Origin: a virus
Lineage: Duplodnaviria > Caudoviricetes
Length of the DNA: 34,143 nucleotides
Reading direction: 5' to 3' (one strand)
IMG/VR virus record: IMGVR_UViG_3300046778_000344
Coordinates: 1-34,143 of that record
The translations under genes were made by a program, and so were the position numbers. Shown piece by piece: positions 9,221-27,541 of the stretch; the stretch's first letter is position 1, and each line of letters starts with the position of its first letter. The notes under the pieces were generated by a model. The model did not search any database and was not told the DNA's origin. It worked only from the letters and a program-made list of their open reading frames with translations.

Positions 9221-9673
9221 TTAATCATTATATTCAATCATTAAATAAACGGTTAGATGGATTGAACCAGGATTAGTATAACTATCTTCTTCCTCCATAG
9301 AATCAAACCGAGCCTCATGTGGTTTTTCTAATATAGGATGAACCAAATAGGTTTTATCTGAAGGAATATAACCTATTAATTTACCTTCATGCTTAACCGA
9401 AATAGCATATTTATCATGTTTATTACCAGGATCAGAACTCAATTCAACAGGCATTGTATCCCATCCGTTTTTTAAAATATAATTTTTACGAGAAGCAACA
9501 TGTACACCAGAAAGAAAAACTCGTAAGCTATTATTATATACAGGCTGTGAATCTATTTTAACAGTCTTTATTTCTGAATAAAACACGGAGTCTTTACTTA
9601 TTATTGAATTATTTCTGAAAAAGAAGTAATAAATGCCGTAACCTACAAGTAAAATTAAAATTATACCTAACAT
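9221..9673 (-). CDS. Membrane-anchored HIRAN-domain protein (moron)
   Basis: N-terminal hydrophobic helix; LSGV...DPGNKHDKYAISV...LIGYIP fits the HIRAN E/D-P-x-N-x-x-D-x-x-A-I-x-V...GY-P pattern. Confidence 0.75.
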   Translation of the reverse strand: MLGIILILLVGYGIYYFFFRNNSIISKDSVFYSEIKTVKIDSQPVYNNSLRVFLSGVHVASRKNYILKNGWDTMPVELSSDPGNKHDKYAISVKHEGKLIGYIPSDKTYLVHPILEKPHEARFDSMEEEDSYTNPGSIHLTVYLMIEYND

Positions 9674-9676
9674 AAA

Positions 9677-10174
9677 TTAATTGTTTTCATTAAGTAATTT
9701 CTTTTTCTCTACATCATATTCTTCCTGTGTTAAAGTACCATCTGCTAAAAGTTCTTTCAATTTTTTTAGTTTGTCGAACTTATCCGATTGTGTAATAACC
9801 GCTCCTTGAGTTTGTTGACAATCTTTGACCTCACAGGTAGCAATCGCCTCTTCGATTTCTAAGGAGTAGTTTGTGATATTCCCACCACCTACAGTGAAAT
9901 ATACTTTTTCAGCACCTTTAAAAGTTGCTTTCTTGATTTTTTTAATCACAACGTTTAAACCGCTATAAGCTGAGCCTATTTGAGTTGTACCACCAGCCAT
10001 CCAACCTGCAATTTTTAAATAAACAAAAGTCCCCTGTCCGCCAGAACCCCTGCCTAGTTGGATAGCATCTCCTACTTTGTAAGTGATATTGTTTGAAGCC
10101 TTGTATTCGGTTATTTTATCCTGAGCATTTGCAAAACCTGAGATAAAAAGCAATACTAAAATAATTTTTCTCAT
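9677..10174 (-). CDS. Exported protein with C-terminal SHOCT domain (moron)
   Basis: Signal peptide MRKIILVLLFISGFANA (start at 10174 preferred over 10186); C-terminal LKKLKELLADGTLTQEEYDVEKKKLL is a SHOCT motif. Confidence 0.8.
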   Translation of the reverse strand: MRKIILVLLFISGFANAQDKITEYKASNNITYKVGDAIQLGRGSGGQGTFVYLKIAGWMAGGTTQIGSAYSGLNVVIKKIKKATFKGAEKVYFTVGGGNITNYSLEIEEAIATCEVKDCQQTQGAVITQSDKFDKLKKLKELLADGTLTQEEYDVEKKKLLNENN

Positions 10175-10206
10175 ATTAATTTCCATTTAGTGAACTGTAA
10201 ATATAT

Positions 10207-13814: not shown

Positions 13815-16241
13815 TTATATTCCTCCATCAGTTACAGTCCATCCGTAACCAGTTATTAAAGTTCCCGCACTTGAATAAGTATTGGTAAATGTGCTACTAT
13901 TCAAATCAATTGTATTAGCATCTACAACTGTAACTATCCAAGAACCATTCGCTTCGGTTGTTCCTACAACTCCTGAAATAAAACATTTGTTTCCTGTTGA
14001 TAATCCGTGAGCAGTAGCAGATATACGAATTAATCCACTACCATTATTTACAGCATTGGTAATTGATTTAGTTGAATTAGTACGAGTTAATAGAGCACGT
14101 CCTTCTGTTGCAGCAGCAGTATATTTAATAGTTGCAAATGTTGTTGTCAAAGCAGCGATAGCAATTCTGTTTGTCCATCCGTTATAAATTGCATCAAGGT
14201 TTGTAGACGAATAATTAGCAGCAGCTTTTCCATTCATGAAATTTGTAAAATTTGTAACAGCAGATACATTCCATGAACCAATATTTTGATTGAAAGCAAC
14301 TGTTCCGTTAAACATTCCACTCATATTTGTAACAGCAATAGTATTCCAAGAACTTATGTCTTGGTTAAATGCAGTTCCAGCAAATACGCTACTTAAATCT
14401 AATGTGCCTGTTGTTTTTAAAGTCCATGAATTTATACCGGAACCACCACCATTATTATATTTAGTTGCTGCTCCAAAAAGATTTATCAACGTACTACAAT
14501 TTGATAAATTCCACACACCTAAATTTTGATTGAAAGCGGTCGCACCGTTAAACATTGAATAGATAGTTGTCATATTAGTTCCAACACTCCAAACCATATT
14601 CCCTGCAACTCCATTAGCTAATCCATTGTTAAAAGCCGAAGCACTTTGAAACATTGCGGACATATTAGTACAAGCTGCTACATTCCAACTACTAATATTC
14701 TGATTGAAAGCATTTGCGCTTTGAAACATTGAAGCGGTTGAAGTCGCTTTAGATATATTCCATGAGTTTAAAGGTTGATTAAATAAAACAGCACTTTGAA
14801 ACATACTAGCCAAAGTAATAGAAGTAGTTGTATTTAAAGTCCAAGTGTCTACGTTAGTGCTTCCACCATTATTAAATTTAGAAGCACTTTGAAACATACT
14901 AGCCAAATTAGTACAGCTAGTCAAAACTAAACTTCCTAAATCTTGGTTAAAATTAGTTGCACTTGAAAACATACTATTTGCTGTAGTAATAGCAGCCATA
15001 TTCCAAGCCATTGTTCCAGCTACTCCATTAGCATAACCATTATTAAATTGTGTAGCAGAATTAAACATTGATGCCATTGTAGTAACTGCAACTGTGTTCC
15101 AAGAATAAATTGGTTGGTTAAACGAAGAAGCACTTTGGAACATATTTCTCATAGTAATTGTGCCAGTAGTTTTAATAGACCAGTTATTTATAGTATTGCT
15201 TGATCCATTATTAAATACAGTAGCACTTTGAAACATGGATAAAAATGAAGTTACAGCAGATACATTCCAAGATCCTATGTTTTGATTGAAAGCTGATGCA
15301 CTTTGGAACATACTAGACATGCTAGTTGCATTACTAGTATTCCAATTGTTAATACTTGAGCTTCCACCATTATTAAAAGCTGTAGCACCTTGGAACATAC
15401 CATTAAAATTAGTGCCATTAACAACGTTCCAACCTCCTATATCTTGATTAAAAATAGTTGCCCCAGAAAACATATTAAGAAAAACACTTGCTCCACTAAC
15501 GTTCCAATTTCCTAATGGTTGATTGAAACTTGTACACCCTGCAAAAGTGCCCTGACCAGATGAACCAAAAGAACCTACATTAGATACATTCCAATTATTT
15601 ATACTACTACTCCCTCCATTATTAAACGCGGTACAATTCATAAAAAATGAATCTATGTTACCAGCACCGGATACATTTAAGGCACCTACATTTTGATTAA
15701 AGTTTGTGCATCCCAAAAACATCTCTCTAAAGTTTATTATAAGACCAGTGTTCCAATCTGTGAATTTATTTACAGATGTAATTGAGGTGCAGCCTCTAAA
15801 AGTTCTTAATAAATCAGTAGTTCCAGTTAAATTCAAGGTGTCGCTAACTGACGATAAATTTAAATTAGAACATCCATAGAAGTAACCCCCTTGTGTAGTT
15901 CCTAATTTAAAATTAGTTCCCCAAGAACTAATGGATAATATTTTTAATCTATCTCCAGTATTGTTAAATTGCCATCCTGTACAAGTACCAGTAGCTATAA
16001 TAGTATAAGTTCCGGAAGAGGAATAAGTATGTGTTACGGCAGCTGCATTATAGGCAGTTATAGTGTCTGAATTTCCATCGCCCCAATTAACAACAAAATT
16101 GTAAGTGCCTGATGAAATCAAAGGCAACTTAATCTGAGTGGATGTGCTTGAACCAGTTGAAGTATTGGCAGTGTTCCATGACGAAACAAACGGCAATTGT
16201 CCATCATACATCATTCCTATTATTTTGTTATATCTCAACAT
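13815..16241 (-). CDS. Fibre/receptor-binding protein with PKD domain, DUF285 (BspA-like surface) repeats and C-terminal E1-FCCH-like domain
   Basis: VNWGDG...THTYSSSGTYTI (PKD); about 20 FNQxIxxWNVxxxTxMxxMF-type repeats; ITNAVNN...AHGLSTG...ISGVVGTTEANGSW. Confidence 0.8.
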   Translation of the reverse strand: MLRYNKIIGMMYDGQLPFVSSWNTANTSTGSSTSTQIKLPLISSGTYNFVVNWGDGNSDTITAYNAAAVTHTYSSSGTYTIIATGTCTGWQFNNTGDRLKILSISSWGTNFKLGTTQGGYFYGCSNLNLSSVSDTLNLTGTTDLLRTFRGCTSITSVNKFTDWNTGLIINFREMFLGCTNFNQNVGALNVSGAGNIDSFFMNCTAFNNGGSSSINNWNVSNVGSFGSSGQGTFAGCTSFNQPLGNWNVSGASVFLNMFSGATIFNQDIGGWNVVNGTNFNGMFQGATAFNNGGSSSINNWNTSNATSMSSMFQSASAFNQNIGSWNVSAVTSFLSMFQSATVFNNGSSNTINNWSIKTTGTITMRNMFQSASSFNQPIYSWNTVAVTTMASMFNSATQFNNGYANGVAGTMAWNMAAITTANSMFSSATNFNQDLGSLVLTSCTNLASMFQSASKFNNGGSTNVDTWTLNTTTSITLASMFQSAVLFNQPLNSWNISKATSTASMFQSANAFNQNISSWNVAACTNMSAMFQSASAFNNGLANGVAGNMVWSVGTNMTTIYSMFNGATAFNQNLGVWNLSNCSTLINLFGAATKYNNGGGSGINSWTLKTTGTLDLSSVFAGTAFNQDISSWNTIAVTNMSGMFNGTVAFNQNIGSWNVSAVTNFTNFMNGKAAANYSSTNLDAIYNGWTNRIAIAALTTTFATIKYTAAATEGRALLTRTNSTKSITNAVNNGSGLIRISATAHGLSTGNKCFISGVVGTTEANGSWIVTVVDANTIDLNSSTFTNTYSSAGTLITGYGWTVTDGGI

Positions 16242-22307: not shown

Positions 22308-23900
22308 CTATTTAGTCATCGTATGCCCTTTAAATAATGGAATGAATCCTTTGTCATCTCGTTGAGAGATCAACCTCATGACCTGCTTGTGGTATCTCCA
22401 GTAGAGTGGGATGTCGAACGTATCACTGAAGTGAGTGGCATGCTCAGGTCGGATAGTCTTAGACTTCTCACTTCGCTTATCTTTGATTATTGTGTTAGGT
22501 TTATTACCAGGAATAGCTGGAGCATTCTCCAATGATATAATCAAGTCCGGGCAATTGTTCTCGTTGATCTCTATTGCTGGCAACCCCATAGTACCACCGT
22601 GCTTAAGTAAATAGTTCACAACAATAAACTTCTGATTGTGAGGAGGATTCTCCGAACCCTTACGAACTTTAACTATAACCTTCCAACCATTCCGTTTTAG
22701 ACAAGCAATCGCCTGCTCAGCAAACGTAACTCGTGAGTTAGCCTGAGTGTTATTACCGTTACGGTCATAGTAGAACTCAATGATATTGTTATATTGTTTC
22801 TTATCTTCATAGTAAGGAGAGAACTCTTCATCGATAAGATCATCAATGATCTTAGGCGATATGACAGAGAAAGTCTTAAGCTTACGATAACGTTCGCCCT
22901 GGTCCTGAGACACAGTCATCGAGTTGAAGTTACCCCAGTCAATAGTAATAATCAAAGGCTTAGACTTCATGTAGTCAGTGTCCTGCTTACAATTGAAATC
23001 TTTCTTCTTAGCATTCACTCCTTTAGATCTCAGATACTCGTTATCATAAGCATAACGATAGTAGTGCTTTTTTGGATCTAATGATGGATAGAAACCATTA
23101 GTAACCTTACTCGGTCTAATGTTACGTATCTCAGCATCATAATGCACTTTGGATGGTGCATTGTCCCACATACGTTCAAACCAGTCTTTAGATAGGTTGT
23201 GTTTGTTTACAGCTGCAGGAGCTTTCACAAACAATACCTTCCAAGGTTTCTTTTTAGCCAGAGCTTCTAAATCAGTAAACCATTGGCCTTTCTCGGTCAT
23301 TGCAACTGAAGAAGCATATATCTCAGCATTACAAAGAGGTTGATCTTCATAGAGCCCGCCACAGGTCGAACGGTTACAGGTTTGAACGTTATTAAACAAA
23401 CGCTCTTTATCTAACAAAACCGCCTCATCACCAATAACGATAGAACAGTTAATTCCACGTCCTGAATTCTCCTGATCATTACTAACCAGAATAAATATAA
23501 AACCGTTAGAAAAGTGAATTACATTATCCCATTTATCAGGAGATTGAAAAGACATATCAAAGCCAAGAGACTTTCCGCATTTCCCAACTACATAATCAAT
23601 CCCTTCATAAATACCGAACATCTCCAGTCCGGCTTTTGTAGACGGAAGTGTCCTGGATAAAATTTGCTGGTAAGTTTCCCCAACAATAATCCCCGTGGCT
23701 TTAGGCATTTGCTTAACAGCTTCTTTCACAAACCAACCAAGTATCGTTGATTTACCAGAACCACGAGCCCATTCTAAAACAATGGTTTTTATCCAAACAT
23801 TACATAAGTCAATCGGATTCCAAACCTTTTTACTGGTCGCATGAATAACACTGATTTGAGCAATGTTTAAATAAATTTCATTATGCTTCTTCATCGTCAT
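22308..23900 (-). CDS. terL: Terminase large subunit
   Basis: Walker A ARGSGKST, Walker B VIGDEA, RNase H-like nuclease ITIDWG ... THFSDTFD. Confidence 0.9.
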   Translation of the reverse strand: MTMKKHNEIYLNIAQISVIHATSKKVWNPIDLCNVWIKTIVLEWARGSGKSTILGWFVKEAVKQMPKATGIIVGETYQQILSRTLPSTKAGLEMFGIYEGIDYVVGKCGKSLGFDMSFQSPDKWDNVIHFSNGFIFILVSNDQENSGRGINCSIVIGDEAVLLDKERLFNNVQTCNRSTCGGLYEDQPLCNAEIYASSVAMTEKGQWFTDLEALAKKKPWKVLFVKAPAAVNKHNLSKDWFERMWDNAPSKVHYDAEIRNIRPSKVTNGFYPSLDPKKHYYRYAYDNEYLRSKGVNAKKKDFNCKQDTDYMKSKPLIITIDWGNFNSMTVSQDQGERYRKLKTFSVISPKIIDDLIDEEFSPYYEDKKQYNNIIEFYYDRNGNNTQANSRVTFAEQAIACLKRNGWKVIVKVRKGSENPPHNQKFIVVNYLLKHGGTMGLPAIEINENNCPDLIISLENAPAIPGNKPNTIIKDKRSEKSKTIRPEHATHFSDTFDIPLYWRYHKQVMRLISQRDDKGFIPLFKGHTMTK

Positions 23901-24465
23901 CCTCCTTTACTTCCTGAAAGTCGATGTCTTCAGTATCCAGATTATTAAAATCTATTGAGCCACCATCCTGATGCGCTTCTATAGATTTTAAAACCGATGG
24001 ATGAGTTTTTAAAACATAAGTCTGAGCTTTTAATTTCTCTGGATCAAAGTTTTGAAGTGTTTCTTTATCATAACTACCCAACTTGATACGTAAAGCCATT
24101 GCTTTTAAGTAAGCAGCTTCATCTTTATTTTTTATCGAACGTTGCTGAGATTTAATTAAATCTTCGCCAATGAGGTATTTTTCGGCTTCTTTTTGGTTGG
24201 CAATTGGATTACCAAAAACAGACATCGCATCACTTACATAACGATACGATTGCGCTCTGGAACAACCATACTCAGTCATTATAACCGCCATTGCCTGTTC
24301 TTTTGAATGATAATTAATTAATAAATTCCATGCTTTATAGATACGAATACGGATTTCATCCTGCTTATCACTAAGAGTGACACTATCTTCCCCCTTGAGA
24401 TAATACTTCCGTATCTTATCCAGAGTGGTTATTGTTTTACGTACTACAACAGCGTTAGAACTCAT
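23881..24465 (-). CDS. Terminase small subunit (probable)
   Basis: 194 aa overlapping the terL start; HTH-like YGCSRAQSYRYV; acidic tail. Confidence 0.65.
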   Translation of the reverse strand: MSSNAVVVRKTITTLDKIRKYYLKGEDSVTLSDKQDEIRIRIYKAWNLLINYHSKEQAMAVIMTEYGCSRAQSYRYVSDAMSVFGNPIANQKEAEKYLIGEDLIKSQQRSIKNKDEAAYLKAMALRIKLGSYDKETLQNFDPEKLKAQTYVLKTHPSVLKSIEAHQDGGSIDFNNLDTEDIDFQEVKEDDDEEA

Positions 24466-24483
24466 AAATATTGAATTTTAACG

Positions 24484-24518
24484 CAATTTCAGTAAAGGGA
24501 AAGTGTAGAAAAAGGACA
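24484..24518 (-). promoter_or_regulatory. Putative phage late promoter (terminase operon)
   Basis: TGTCCTTTT-N17-CTGAAATTG, directly after a terminator. Confidence 0.65.
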
Positions 24519-24522
24519 AATA

Positions 24523-24549
24523 AAAAACCCGCTAGAGTAGCGGGTTTTT
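24523..24549. terminator. Intrinsic terminator
   Basis: AAAAACCCGCTA-GAG-TAGCGGGTTTTT. Confidence 0.85.
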
Positions 24550-24571
24550 ACATTTAAAAATCATTAATTTA

Positions 24572-24805
24572 TTAATACTCTACATCAGTAAAATCTACAT
24601 AATAAGCTTTACCTATTTCAAAAGCATTGCTAGCTTCAGTACCATAAGAAACGCTTAAGTGTATTTGACCGTTTGGAGTGTATTTAGAAAATGATTCATT
24701 TTCTTGACTTCCAGCTATAACTGGAACTAATGAAACTGATTTAGTTTCGGATTCCGGAGCATCCACAACCCCGATACAAACAAATTTAGCTCTTACTTTT
24801 GGCAT
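24572..24805 (-). CDS. Small conserved-looking phage protein
   Basis: 77 aa; VRAKFVC...ENESFSKYTPNG...GKAYYVDF; flanked by its own promoter motif and terminator. Confidence 0.7.
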   Translation of the reverse strand: MPKVRAKFVCIGVVDAPESETKSVSLVPVIAGSQENESFSKYTPNGQIHLSVSYGTEASNAFEIGKAYYVDFTDVEY

Positions 24806-24838
24806 AATTTTACATTTTAGTTATTATTAAAGTGACCG

Positions 24839-24873
24839 CAATTTTCAACAATCTGAAGGTTTAAAAAAGGACT
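24839..24873 (-). promoter_or_regulatory. Variant late promoter
   Basis: AGTCCTTTT-N17-TGAAAATTG, overlapping the TS stop codon. Confidence 0.55.
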
Positions 24874-25513
24874 AAGAAACTACATTCAAATTAAACTTCG
24901 AATTCCTTCCAACCAACAACTCTTTCGTTCCTTCTATATTGTTTTCATAAACATGAACATTACCCAGAAACAAAGTAATACTTTTCAGTTGAATATCTAT
25001 TTTTTTGCTAATGAGGTACAAATGATAGATATCTGAGGGCAATCCAAGATTAGCATCGGAACTTCGTTGGTATGCGCTTATGACTAGTTTTCCATTATCT
25101 ATTTGAAATTGAATCAAACTCAAACAAGGCTGTTGATTGCTTTCGGTATTATTGGATCCAAGAAACAATACATAATTTTTTGAAGTTCTTTTCTCTTTGT
25201 TGATTTTTTCAATAAGCTTCGGCAATTGTTCAAAGTAAGTTGGATAACTGTTAACCAAAATAGGTCCGCAATAATCCCACCAGGTAACACCAATTTCGCG
25301 ATATGCTTCTGTGGATCTTTCTCCAGCCATAAACAACAGCAGCTCATCCTTTAATTTCTTTTTAGCCACTGTATGACCTTCAAATAATTCAAGTAAATCA
25401 ATTGGTTTTAACTCCAGTGTTTCATTTAAAAGAAATGTTATTGACCCTTTTTTGTTCTTTTGAACCTTACCTTTTACAAGGATTTTACTTAATATTTTAT
25501 GATATTTATTCAT
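24872..25513 (-). CDS. Thymidylate synthase superfamily protein, dCMP-type specificity residue
   Basis: QPC (Cys130), YQRSSDANLGLPSD, GNVHVY; Asp161 aligns with E. coli ThyA Asn177. Confidence 0.85.
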   Translation of the reverse strand: MNKYHKILSKILVKGKVQKNKKGSITFLLNETLELKPIDLLELFEGHTVAKKKLKDELLLFMAGERSTEAYREIGVTWWDYCGPILVNSYPTYFEQLPKLIEKINKEKRTSKNYVLFLGSNNTESNQQPCLSLIQFQIDNGKLVISAYQRSSDANLGLPSDIYHLYLISKKIDIQLKSITLFLGNVHVYENNIEGTKELLVGRNSKFNLNVVS

Positions 25514-25527
25514 CTGATTTATGTTTT

Positions 25528-26808
25528 TTATTTGAAATAAGTTTCAATTTCATCATTAGACAAAACCTGTCCATTTTTCAGCAATTCAAACTCCAGATGG
25601 TTTTCACGCATGTATTTCACCCATCTTTTTACATCCACATCAACATATCTTGGATCTAGTTCTATTCCTCTACATTGTCTCCAACTCATCTCGCAAGCAA
25701 TCAAAGTAGTGCCAGAACCAAGGAACGAATCCCCAACGATATCATATTGCTTACTACTATTTTTAATTAAATAAACAAACATCAAAACAGGCTTCATTGT
25801 TGGATGATCTTCGCTTCGTAATGGTTTATCAAATTCTATAACAGTAGTTTGTTTTCTGTCCGAATACCATTTATGAGCAGCACCTTCTTTCCATCCGTAA
25901 AGTATTGGCTCATGTTTCCATTGATAATCCTGACGCCCCATTACAATTCCGTTTTTCAACCATACAAGGCATTGAGCTAATTTAAATCCAGCATCTTTTA
26001 AAGCATTCCGGAAGTTAGCACCTTCACTATCCGCATGAAATACATAAATCCCACTTCCTGGCTCCGTATGATCACAAGCCGCTTTATAAAATTCAAAAAG
26101 AAAAGTGTAAAAGTCAGCACTCGACATATTATCATTTTCAATCTGCAACTTGTCTTTAGTACCACCGGTATAATTCACATTGTACGGAGGATCCGTAAGC
26201 AGCAGTTTGAAAAGCAAACCATCAAGTAACTTTTCATAAACATCAGATAATCTACTGTCACCGCAAATAACTTTATGCGTTAATTTCTTTTGAACCGAAC
26301 GCATTTCATACACATCTCCCAAAATCGTAATTGGTTCTTTTGGTAATTTAGGTTCAAAATCCGATTCTTCCTCGCTTTGCAATTCCATCGGTAAACCCAA
26401 ATCAGGAAGAGGAATGTCGTCAACATTTAAACCAAAAGACAATAAATCAACATCATCAAAAATTGCGTTCAAAATATCAACATCCCATTCACCAACAGAA
26501 ACATTCGAACGGATATTATATTCTTTAAACTCCAGTTCCGTAAGCTCACGGTTAGGAACTCGTACATCAATTAAATCTTCACCACGGCCAATTTCCATTA
26601 AAACCACAACACGCTGATGTCCGGCAATAATTATATCATTGGTATTTATAGCAGGAATTTCGGCAAGATTGTACTTTTCTAAACTTTCTCTAAGTTTTTG
26701 TTTTTTGTCTTCAGATAATTTTCTAGGATTGTATTCATACGGAATTAAATCCTTTACTTTTCTTTTTTCGGTTGACCACTCCAAAGGAGCTAATACTAAA
26801 TCATTCAT
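25528..26808 (-). CDS. ParB-like domain fused to N6-adenine/N4-cytosine DNA methyltransferase (beta class)
   Basis: YEYNPR...IIAGHQRV (ParB/Srx); TDPPY precedes HPTMKP and DSFLGSGTT. Confidence 0.9.
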   Translation of the reverse strand: MNDLVLAPLEWSTEKRKVKDLIPYEYNPRKLSEDKKQKLRESLEKYNLAEIPAINTNDIIIAGHQRVVVLMEIGRGEDLIDVRVPNRELTELEFKEYNIRSNVSVGEWDVDILNAIFDDVDLLSFGLNVDDIPLPDLGLPMELQSEEESDFEPKLPKEPITILGDVYEMRSVQKKLTHKVICGDSRLSDVYEKLLDGLLFKLLLTDPPYNVNYTGGTKDKLQIENDNMSSADFYTFLFEFYKAACDHTEPGSGIYVFHADSEGANFRNALKDAGFKLAQCLVWLKNGIVMGRQDYQWKHEPILYGWKEGAAHKWYSDRKQTTVIEFDKPLRSEDHPTMKPVLMFVYLIKNSSKQYDIVGDSFLGSGTTLIACEMSWRQCRGIELDPRYVDVDVKRWVKYMRENHLEFELLKNGQVLSNDEIETYFK

Positions 26809-27541
26809 CTTTTAATAGTTTTCTAATGGTTTCTAAATCAATTTTTAGTTGCTCCAGCTGCTCCAGTTTCCTATTGTACAAATTGAGTAAACCACGATCT
26901 TCAGGAGACGCTTTTACACGCTCGAGCATTGATATTAAGGTTTTTTCTCTTTTGCTAATATTCGACTGCAGGTTATTGCGTCGCATCCATAATTGTTTTT
27001 CAGATAACGCATTGAAGTCCTCGCTTTCTTCAGTAGGCATTATTCTATTGTGGGTTTTCCAATGCCCGAGAATTATCCAAGCACGATCAATCCTGGTCCA
27101 CAGATCATCGAGTTGAATAATAATTTTAAGCGCTTCTTTTTCGTCATCTTCAGCAATAGAGTTCAATTGGAATTTCAACTCACAGGCTAAATAAAAATCA
27201 CTCACACGCTGACGATACGTGGAGTGCAGTTCCATAGGAAAATCAGCCATGGTTTCATTTTGAAAAGAAGCCGCTGCCGACTGCTGTATAATTTCCTTAA
27301 GTAACGGCTCTGGTTTGACCACTTTTTTAGGCTCAGGAGCAATATTTTCCTTTTTTGGTATAATTGCACTACTGCCCGATAAAGAGGCTTTTTTTAGCTC
27401 GTATTTCAGTTTAAGAAAATTAGCAGTGTTTTCTTTAGCAAAGTTTCTTAACACATTAGCATTACACGATGGTAATTGACTGTAAAGCTTCACACCATCA
27501 GCATAAGAACCTTGAGAAGCAAACCACGACTGTATATCCAT
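26801..27541 (-). CDS. Hypothetical coiled-coil phage protein
   Basis: 246 aa, overlaps the methyltransferase start. Confidence 0.7.
   Translation of the reverse strand: MDIQSWFASQGSYADGVKLYSQLPSCNANVLRNFAKENTANFLKLKYELKKASLSGSSAIIPKKENIAPEPKKVVKPEPLLKEIIQQSAAASFQNETMADFPMELHSTYRQRVSDFYLACELKFQLNSIAEDDEKEALKIIIQLDDLWTRIDRAWIILGHWKTHNRIMPTEESEDFNALSEKQLWMRRNNLQSNISKREKTLISMLERVKASPEDRGLLNLYNRKLEQLEQLKIDLETIRKLLKDE

Follow-up and report, generated by a model that had tools for sequence, protein, structure and literature searches.

A compact thymidylate synthase homolog with cytosine-type residues in the DNA-modification gene slot of Bacteroidota temperate phages

The locus and its thymidylate synthase homolog

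The stretch of viral DNA analysed here (the window, 34,143 nt) is a prophage of Flavobacterium type, judging from its named homologs, with an integrase gene at 1-1221 and a structural operon on the minus strand. Upstream of its putative terminase genes, a compact member of the thymidylate synthase (TS) family lies behind the gene for an amino-methyltransferase with a ParB-like N-terminus (Table 1). The close spacing of these two genes, part of the original prediction, was confirmed by the open reading frames, and the nature of the upstream protein by PF01555 and phrog_620, the latter covering residues 13-131 (E 1.2e-19). The DPPY motif of this methylase (206) precedes FLGSGTT (362), as in the beta class. 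The labels capsid and terminase were assigned from position and motifs; these ORFs gave no match in Pfam or PHROGs, the terminase ORF gave none in NCBIfam either, and a terminase search returned one close locus. Elsewhere in the window, an 808-aa DUF285 repeat protein (seven stretches; 13815-16241), likely a receptor-binding or surface protein, is encoded amid lysis and tail genes, and accessory genes with HIRAN and SHOCT domains and N-terminal hydrophobic segments (9221-10186) lie within the tail region.

Table 1. Features of the locus, with positions in the window
Feature	Position	Strand	Basis or remark
Compact TS-family gene, 213 aa, cytosine-type (Asp161)	24872-25513	minus	PF00303 (E 1.7e-21), TS fold, conservation, dN/dS
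Asp161 codon GAT, equivalent of ThyA Asn177	25031-25033	minus	Alignments; Asp in 80/80 viral loci and 118/118 proteins
Catalytic Cys130 (ThyA Cys146)	25124-25126	minus	Alignments
14-nt spacer, methylase stop to TS start	25514-25527	minus	Usual structured leader of the compact TS family not found
ParB-like domain fused to beta-class amino-methyltransferase, 426 aa; backbone gene of the phage group	25528-26808	minus	PF01555 (2.8e-24), phrog_498, phrog_620
246-aa backbone ORF, stop overlapping the methylase start	26801-27541	minus	ORF list, sister loci
77-aa ORF (phrog_6978, no assigned function) in the variable slot	24572-24805	minus	PHROGs
Terminator-like hairpin at the end of the variable slot	24523-24549	minus	Consensus match only
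Putative genes for the small and large terminase subunits, forming the slot's conserved downstream border	22308-24465	minus	Conserved in sisters; position and P-loop motif

Alignments with ThyA chains from the PDB and with the host's own ThyA bore out the catalytic frame and the GLPSD motif (with its GAT codon) that had been read from the sequence. E57, C130, R150, S151, D153, H187 and Y189 are all in place, and among them are the equivalents of the catalytic Cys, Arg166, Ser167, Asp169, His207 and Tyr209 of ThyA. Asp161 falls opposite the Asn in the G[LV]PFN motif, and Phe176 of ThyA is replaced by Ser or Ala. The substitutions at the phosphate ligands and at His147 are as originally described: L131 stands at the position of His147, and K112 and N113 of S111-K112-N113 at those of Arg126 and Arg127. 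The alignment adds that N20-K21-K22-G23 corresponds to D-R-T-G of ThyA, with K21 as the equivalent of Arg21. Gln127 occupies the position of Leu143, which is taken by Asn in the Xp12 dCMP methylase and by Asp in T4 gp42.

The top sequence and fold matches of the protein are ThyA, and an ESM Atlas search returned TS clusters only; against the NCBIfam ThyA models it falls far below the cut-off in 8 of 8 cases (e.g. 62 vs 327 bits). The predicted structure, called for as a check, has the TS fold. The AlphaFold model (alignment of 33 sequences) has a pLDDT of 80.8, falling to low-confidence block values of 53-61 at residues 71-90 and 121-130, which form active-site loops. Above Z 5 it matches TS-fold chains only (VIA), with Z scores of 16.3-17.3 for ThyA (17.3 for 6auj), 16.3 for a flavin dCMP monooxygenase, 15.1 for MilA and 14.6 for T4 dCH. 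The host's own ThyA is encoded on another contig, beside DHFR. The 213-aa protein is about 60 aa shorter than this host ThyA, and the compact family is basic, with a median pI of 9.1 as against 5.8-6.4 for host ThyA, Xp12 and T4 gp42.

A homolog search gave at least 8000 scored homologs, and we analysed the TS loci of the best 80 of 112 IMG/VR matches (viral loci) and the best 80 of 513 GTDB matches (genome loci), 160 in all. Identity within the compact family stays at 68% or more even between Flavobacterium and gut Bacteroides; among isolated phages, Hankyphage-type Bacteroides phages match at 68-71% and the next at only about 30%. Asp161, Cys130, Glu57, Tyr90, Arg150, Ser151 and Asp153, along with Gln127 and S111-K112-N113, are invariant in the 80 best viral loci and in 118 of 118 proteins, and His187 and Tyr189 are present in 79 of those 80 loci (the exception is truncated) and in all 118 proteins. 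Leu131 is likewise invariant in the family, as are K22, K53, R66, R109 and K112, and the Asp is retained in 18 of 18 distant full-length relatives chosen from 150 listed. Compared with six relatives, the TS gene shows dN of 0.06-0.09 with dS saturated or nearly so, and is under purifying selection. With Asp161 invariant and a ThyA encoded elsewhere in the host, the original assignment to a cytosine type, rather than to dTMP supply, is supported; loss of Asp161 among homologs, named at the outset as a refuting result, did not occur. The gene is an accessory, mobile gene of Bacteroidota temperate phages.

An RNA leader shared with DNA-modifying genes

Baseplate-like tail genes precede TS in 57 of the 80 best viral and 56 of the 80 best genome loci, and the TS gene is often the last of its prophage. 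It usually occupies the position of mom in phage Mu, which in Mu-like prophages is also filled with methylases (PMC3299994; PMC7761591). Upstream of the TS cassette, a covarying element of about 140 nt was recovered by nhmmer or a covariance model at 157 of the 160 loci. This count includes some duplicate loci as well as the 44 from which the model was built; one of the misses is cut off upstream, and the weakest match has E 0.005. Examples lie at L013:5830-5975, L152:3575-3712 and L383:40532-40703, with about 150 others. Within the window nhmmer found no leader and the covariance model, with filters off, gave a best E of 0.44; nor was one found elsewhere in the window's own genome, which is 92% complete. 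Searched against Rfam, the leader gave no match at gathering score in 12 sources, and further search gave only chance-level matches. In Hankyphage-like prophages, the RT-3 RNA of Rfam is present next to the DGR reverse transcriptase and upstream of the TS cassette with its leader (L071:3508-3660, L073:3476-3625).

When 44 copies of the leader were aligned by sequence only, compensatory changes were seen in 9 of 10 pairs of its outer helix and in 8 of 10 pairs of an alternative long-range helix, both far above slid controls. The G-U pairs of the apical hairpin favour the sense strand (84 vs 11), and those of the long-range helix favour the antisense strand (40 vs 4), on which that helix ends in a U-run. 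The antisense strand also carries TAnnTTTG, which we take to be the Bacteroidota -7 promoter element, in 42 of the 44 copies, and the folding z-scores of two copies are -9 (sense) and -6 (antisense). These features suggest a leader hairpin paired with an antisense RNA. When four RNA runs were compared with the leader on all contigs, three had zero cover there and the fourth had cover throughout the region.

A search with the leader alone gave 120 loci, 80 with flanks and 76 with at least 700 nt downstream. At every one of these 76 the leader heads a TS, methylase, Mom or ABC-ATPase/GNAT/formyltransferase cassette: D12 methylase only (26), the ABC/GNAT/formyltransferase cassette (15), TS (14), D12 with TS (8), an N6/N4 methylase (6), a C5-containing cassette (5) or Mom (PF25680; 2). 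TS and DNA-modifying enzymes thus replace one another in a single slot, an exchange that supports the DNA-marking role originally proposed. TS and a C5 methylase occur together at none of the 160 loci (80 best viral and 80 best genome), many of which are kin and so not independent; since TS is likewise never found with Mom or the GNAT cassette, this exclusion is not specific to C5 methylases. The counts by which a single leader is linked to TS, to Mom and to four types of methylase or GNAT cassette are new, and we found no paper that tests the compact TS family or describes the leader, though supplements or candidate-RNA catalogues may hold an earlier mention.

Several features of individual cassettes are worth recording. 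At L174:2636-4546 the leader is followed by a 42-43-aa peptide, a 231-aa ABC-ATPase-like ORF, a GNAT ORF in another frame and a formyltransferase; the same cassette is present in L181, L188, L190, L197, L212, L216 and L247, in several loci the GNAT and ABC ORFs overlap, a possible programmed frameshift, and one tally puts the cassette at 17 of the 76 leader loci. In some of the TS copies that follow the leader, the usual start position holds AAA, ATC, ACA or ACG in place of ATG (L018, L034, L046, L052, and L025 at 6001), and these may have a non-standard or shifted start. Several leader-methylase-TS cassettes occur per genome in L095, L100 and L102 (one genome) and in L088 and L101, as expected of transposable prophages. 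The Hankyphage genome has the leader once, before its hp44-TS-methylase cassette. Its TS ortholog rises by log2 1.5-4.4 after induction, below the structural genes at 1-6 h (PMC12135933, supplement 9); a search of the main text of that paper found no mention of it.

The ParB-methylase and its variable slot

The original prediction joined the TS gene and the ParB-methylase into a two-enzyme module, and this was rejected by the neighbourhood counts. Relatives of the methylase are found at none of the 80 best viral TS loci and at one of the 80 best genome loci (Mesonia, L152); seen from the methylase, none of its 80 viral loci carries TS. The methylase is kept without TS in eleven distinct sister backbones (orf246, methylase, terminase; one truncated locus excluded), the TS position being empty or holding unrelated genes. 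The survey of homologs points instead to a different neighbour or to none: D12-class methylases of two subfamilies adjoin TS, upstream or downstream, at 81 of the 160 loci, and 78 have no tested modifier within 2.5 kb, many viral contigs ending soon after TS. Where genome loci from the best 80 of 513 extend at least 1.5 kb downstream, 34 of 63 have none of the tested modifiers.

The interval between methylase and terminase (23881-25527 in the window) is hypervariable, being empty in L294, L296, L325 and L376 and holding unrelated ORFs of 94-421 aa in others (slot examples are L084, L293-L296, L378 and L381). The 77-aa ORF was not found beside TS in other TS loci. In Mesonia L152 and in L375 the leader stands between the 246-aa ORF and methylase genes, and L375 has the layout of L152 minus TS; in both, the terminase genes point the opposite way to the head operon (L152:6073-8655, L375:3197-4264). 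In the TS tree the window copy nests among copies from Mu-like prophages (distance 0.20) and lies 0.68 from that of L152, which indicates that it arrived behind the ParB-methylase independently. The two genes thus stand together here through a rare insertion and do not form a fixed pair. We suggest that a mobile TS gene entered the variable slot between the methylase and terminase genes without its usual leader; having no leader of its own, it would be co-transcribed with the methylase and not depend on it.

Substrate and product

We suggest that the 213-aa enzyme methylates dCMP at C5 using methylene-tetrahydrofolate, and that some 5-methylcytosine (5mC) would then enter replicating phage DNA through the kinases and polymerase of the host, where it would likely protect against restriction. 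We hold this reading tentatively, at a little under an even chance. Aspartate at position 177 marks dCMP enzymes (PMC13326640; PMC8670742), and position 147 is a second marker (PMC8670742). The D169N change of flavin hydroxylases (PMC13326640) is absent, Asp153 being invariant, which argues against a flavin 5-hydroxy-dCMP synthase of the RB69 gp48 type. Hydroxymethylases such as T4 gp42 and MilA typically have Asp or Glu at 143 (PMC13326640); the invariant Gln127 found here resembles the Asn of the Xp12 methylase and so favours methylation, though weakly.

The enzyme most likely works like the Xp12 dCMP methylase (5mdCMP synthase, QNN97214.1), with which it shares the TS fold, the catalytic Cys, Asp at 177 and 169, an amide at 143 and a residue other than His at 147. 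The two differ in that they are only 27% identical over 115 aa, that Xp12 has 289 aa and keeps Arg126/127 where the compact family has K/N, and that Xp12 is lytic, replaces all its cytosine and carries dCMP deaminase, DHFR and RNR genes, whereas the compact family is temperate, basic and travels without such partners. In the tree, which includes one mistranslated row (the host ThyA), Xp12 forms a long unresolved branch outside the clade of the compact family. T4 gp42 and MilA share the Asp at 177; by sequence, similarity to T4 gp42 is barely detectable (E 0.06), and T4, unlike these phages, has a dCTPase, kinase, polymerase and glucosyltransferases. The original prediction took the altered phosphate pocket as a sign of a substrate other than a free mononucleotide, and this argument is weakened by both enzymes: T4 gp42 has Lys at Arg21 (DKTG), and MilA has Lys at Arg126' (PMC5175136). 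Moreover, the His/Tyr pair and the Ser167 equivalent, whose counterparts in TS and T4 CH bind the free 3'-OH and the deoxyribose (PMC5175136), are kept here, so that the phosphate changes need no polymer substrate.

The supply of modified nucleotide bears directly on this model. A scan of 36 window ORFs turned up no kinase, dCTPase or polymerase, in agreement with the original prediction. Just past the right end of the window, where the contig ends, the early region of the prophage is broken by a two-gene transposase-like insertion, apparently of IS3 type (L384:555-1906), and the absence therefore holds for the window only. None of the three was found in the annotation of the complete Hankyphage jmh43_hp, and neither a kinase nor a dCTPase is among the recurring neighbours of TS loci, where no glycosyl- or carbamoyltransferase or deaminase was seen either. 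With no dCTPase, kinase or polymerase of phage origin, 5mC substitution would be partial. In E. coli with the T4 kinase, 5mdC was formed by five of the seven N177D homologs tested (bioRxiv 2024.12.05.627091). Related enzymes without a kinase still gave modified cytosine detectable in DNA by mass spectrometry, and without a dCTPase or cognate kinase incorporation was at trace level only (PMC13326640). Such a trace may be too little to protect, and flux is the weak point of the dCMP-methylase model. In bacteria, dCMP lies off the main route to dCTP. Other points also count against the model. The known slot-mates all act on DNA after replication, whereas the model acts on the nucleotide; a hydrophobic residue at 143 is said to favour methyl transfer (PMC13326640) and Gln127 is not hydrophobic; the family is basic and has no Xp12-like deaminase, DHFR or RNR partners; confidence in the structural model is low over the active-site loops; and the Hankyphage TS is induced less than the structural genes at 1-6 h.

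An enzyme on the same nucleotide route could instead yield 5-hydroxymethyl-dCMP, as T4 gp42 does. A polar Gln at 143 could admit water, the VNSY of the protein resembles INSNY of T4, and the gene travels without DHFR; the amide at 143 is nevertheless that of a methylase rather than the acidic residue of hydroxymethylases, the recurring neighbours include no glycosyl- or carbamoyltransferase, and the fold is, weakly, less like T4 dCH than ThyA, all of which makes this product fairly unlikely. Somewhat less probable still is a folate-dependent C5 methyl- or hydroxymethyltransferase that acts on cytosine in DNA after replication. The basic family and its post-replicative slot-mates keep a DNA-level reaction in play: all identified alternatives in the slot (Mom, D12, N6/N4, C5, GNAT) are DNA-acting families, C5 methylases never accompany TS, kinase and dCTPase partners are absent, and the protein is short, with invariant K22, K53, R66, R109 and K112. 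The conserved holders of the 3'-OH and deoxyribose (His187, Tyr189, Ser151) speak against it, the Lys substitutions have precedents in mononucleotide enzymes, and the exclusion extends to Mom and the GNAT cassette. To our knowledge, no TS-fold enzyme acts on a polymer. The fullest form of this idea, for which we would give only a small chance, is that the family modifies cytosine in DNA with folate as a SAM-independent counterpart of Mom, under a two-strand RNA switch (leader hairpin and antisense RNA) common to the mom slot, in Hankyphage and hundreds of Bacteroidota prophages.

Three further readings are less probable. The enzyme may serve the nucleotide pool, with the host deaminating 5mdCMP to dTMP or with dCMP diverted against host defence; dT is made from 5mdC in Xp12-type phages (bioRxiv 2024.12.05.627091) and flux into DNA may be low, but recurring neighbours include no deaminase, the host has ThyA beside DHFR, and slot and leader are common with DNA modifiers, so that we regard this as improbable. 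That TS and the ParB-methylase form an obligate marking module is suggested by their close spacing, by the same gene order in Mesonia L152, by two separate arrivals of TS behind this methylase and by the activation of phage DNA-modifying enzymes by some ParBs (PMC13229309). The neighbourhood counts (1/160 TS loci, 0/80 methylase loci), the sister backbones and the L375 layout without TS, together with the many TS loci lacking any tested modifier, make it very improbable. An ordinary dUMP thymidylate synthase, as the family is annotated, is just as hard to credit: ThyA is the closest match in sequence and fold and shares the catalytic frame with the compact protein, and yet Asn177 is changed to Asp, His147 to Leu, Phe176 to Ser/Ala, Arg21/126/127 to K/K/N and Leu143 to Gln relative to host (L081) and E. 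coli ThyA, scores fall below every NCBIfam ThyA cut-off, and the host carries its own enzyme.

The dCMP-methylase reading would extend a type of enzyme known from lytic phages that replace all of their cytosine with the help of supporting genes; the compact family lacks such support and yet is highly conserved. Should the family mark DNA, a single gene would suffice for temperate Mu-like phages, among them the common gut Hankyphage, to modify cytosine at the level of the nucleotide or of DNA, and the standard ThyA annotations in those phages would be wrong. An example is the "thymidylate synthase" of Hankyphage p00 (DAC76694.1), which belongs to the same family (69% identity), has the signature residues and lies in a cassette with the leader upstream; this phage differs from that of the window in being Mu-like, with TS followed by a D12-type methylase at its right end. 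Mu mom and the genes that replace it, Hia5, Hin1523 and Nma1821, occupy the same genomic slot, and the leader also heads Mom genes and methylases, but their fold and chemistry are unrelated and they modify adenine in DNA. The shared leader offers a handle for finding further DNA-modifying genes. Beyond the compact family, a set of distant short TS relatives (P0130-P0257, 30-49% identity) shares the Asp at 177 and, for the most part, Gln143 and S[KR]N.
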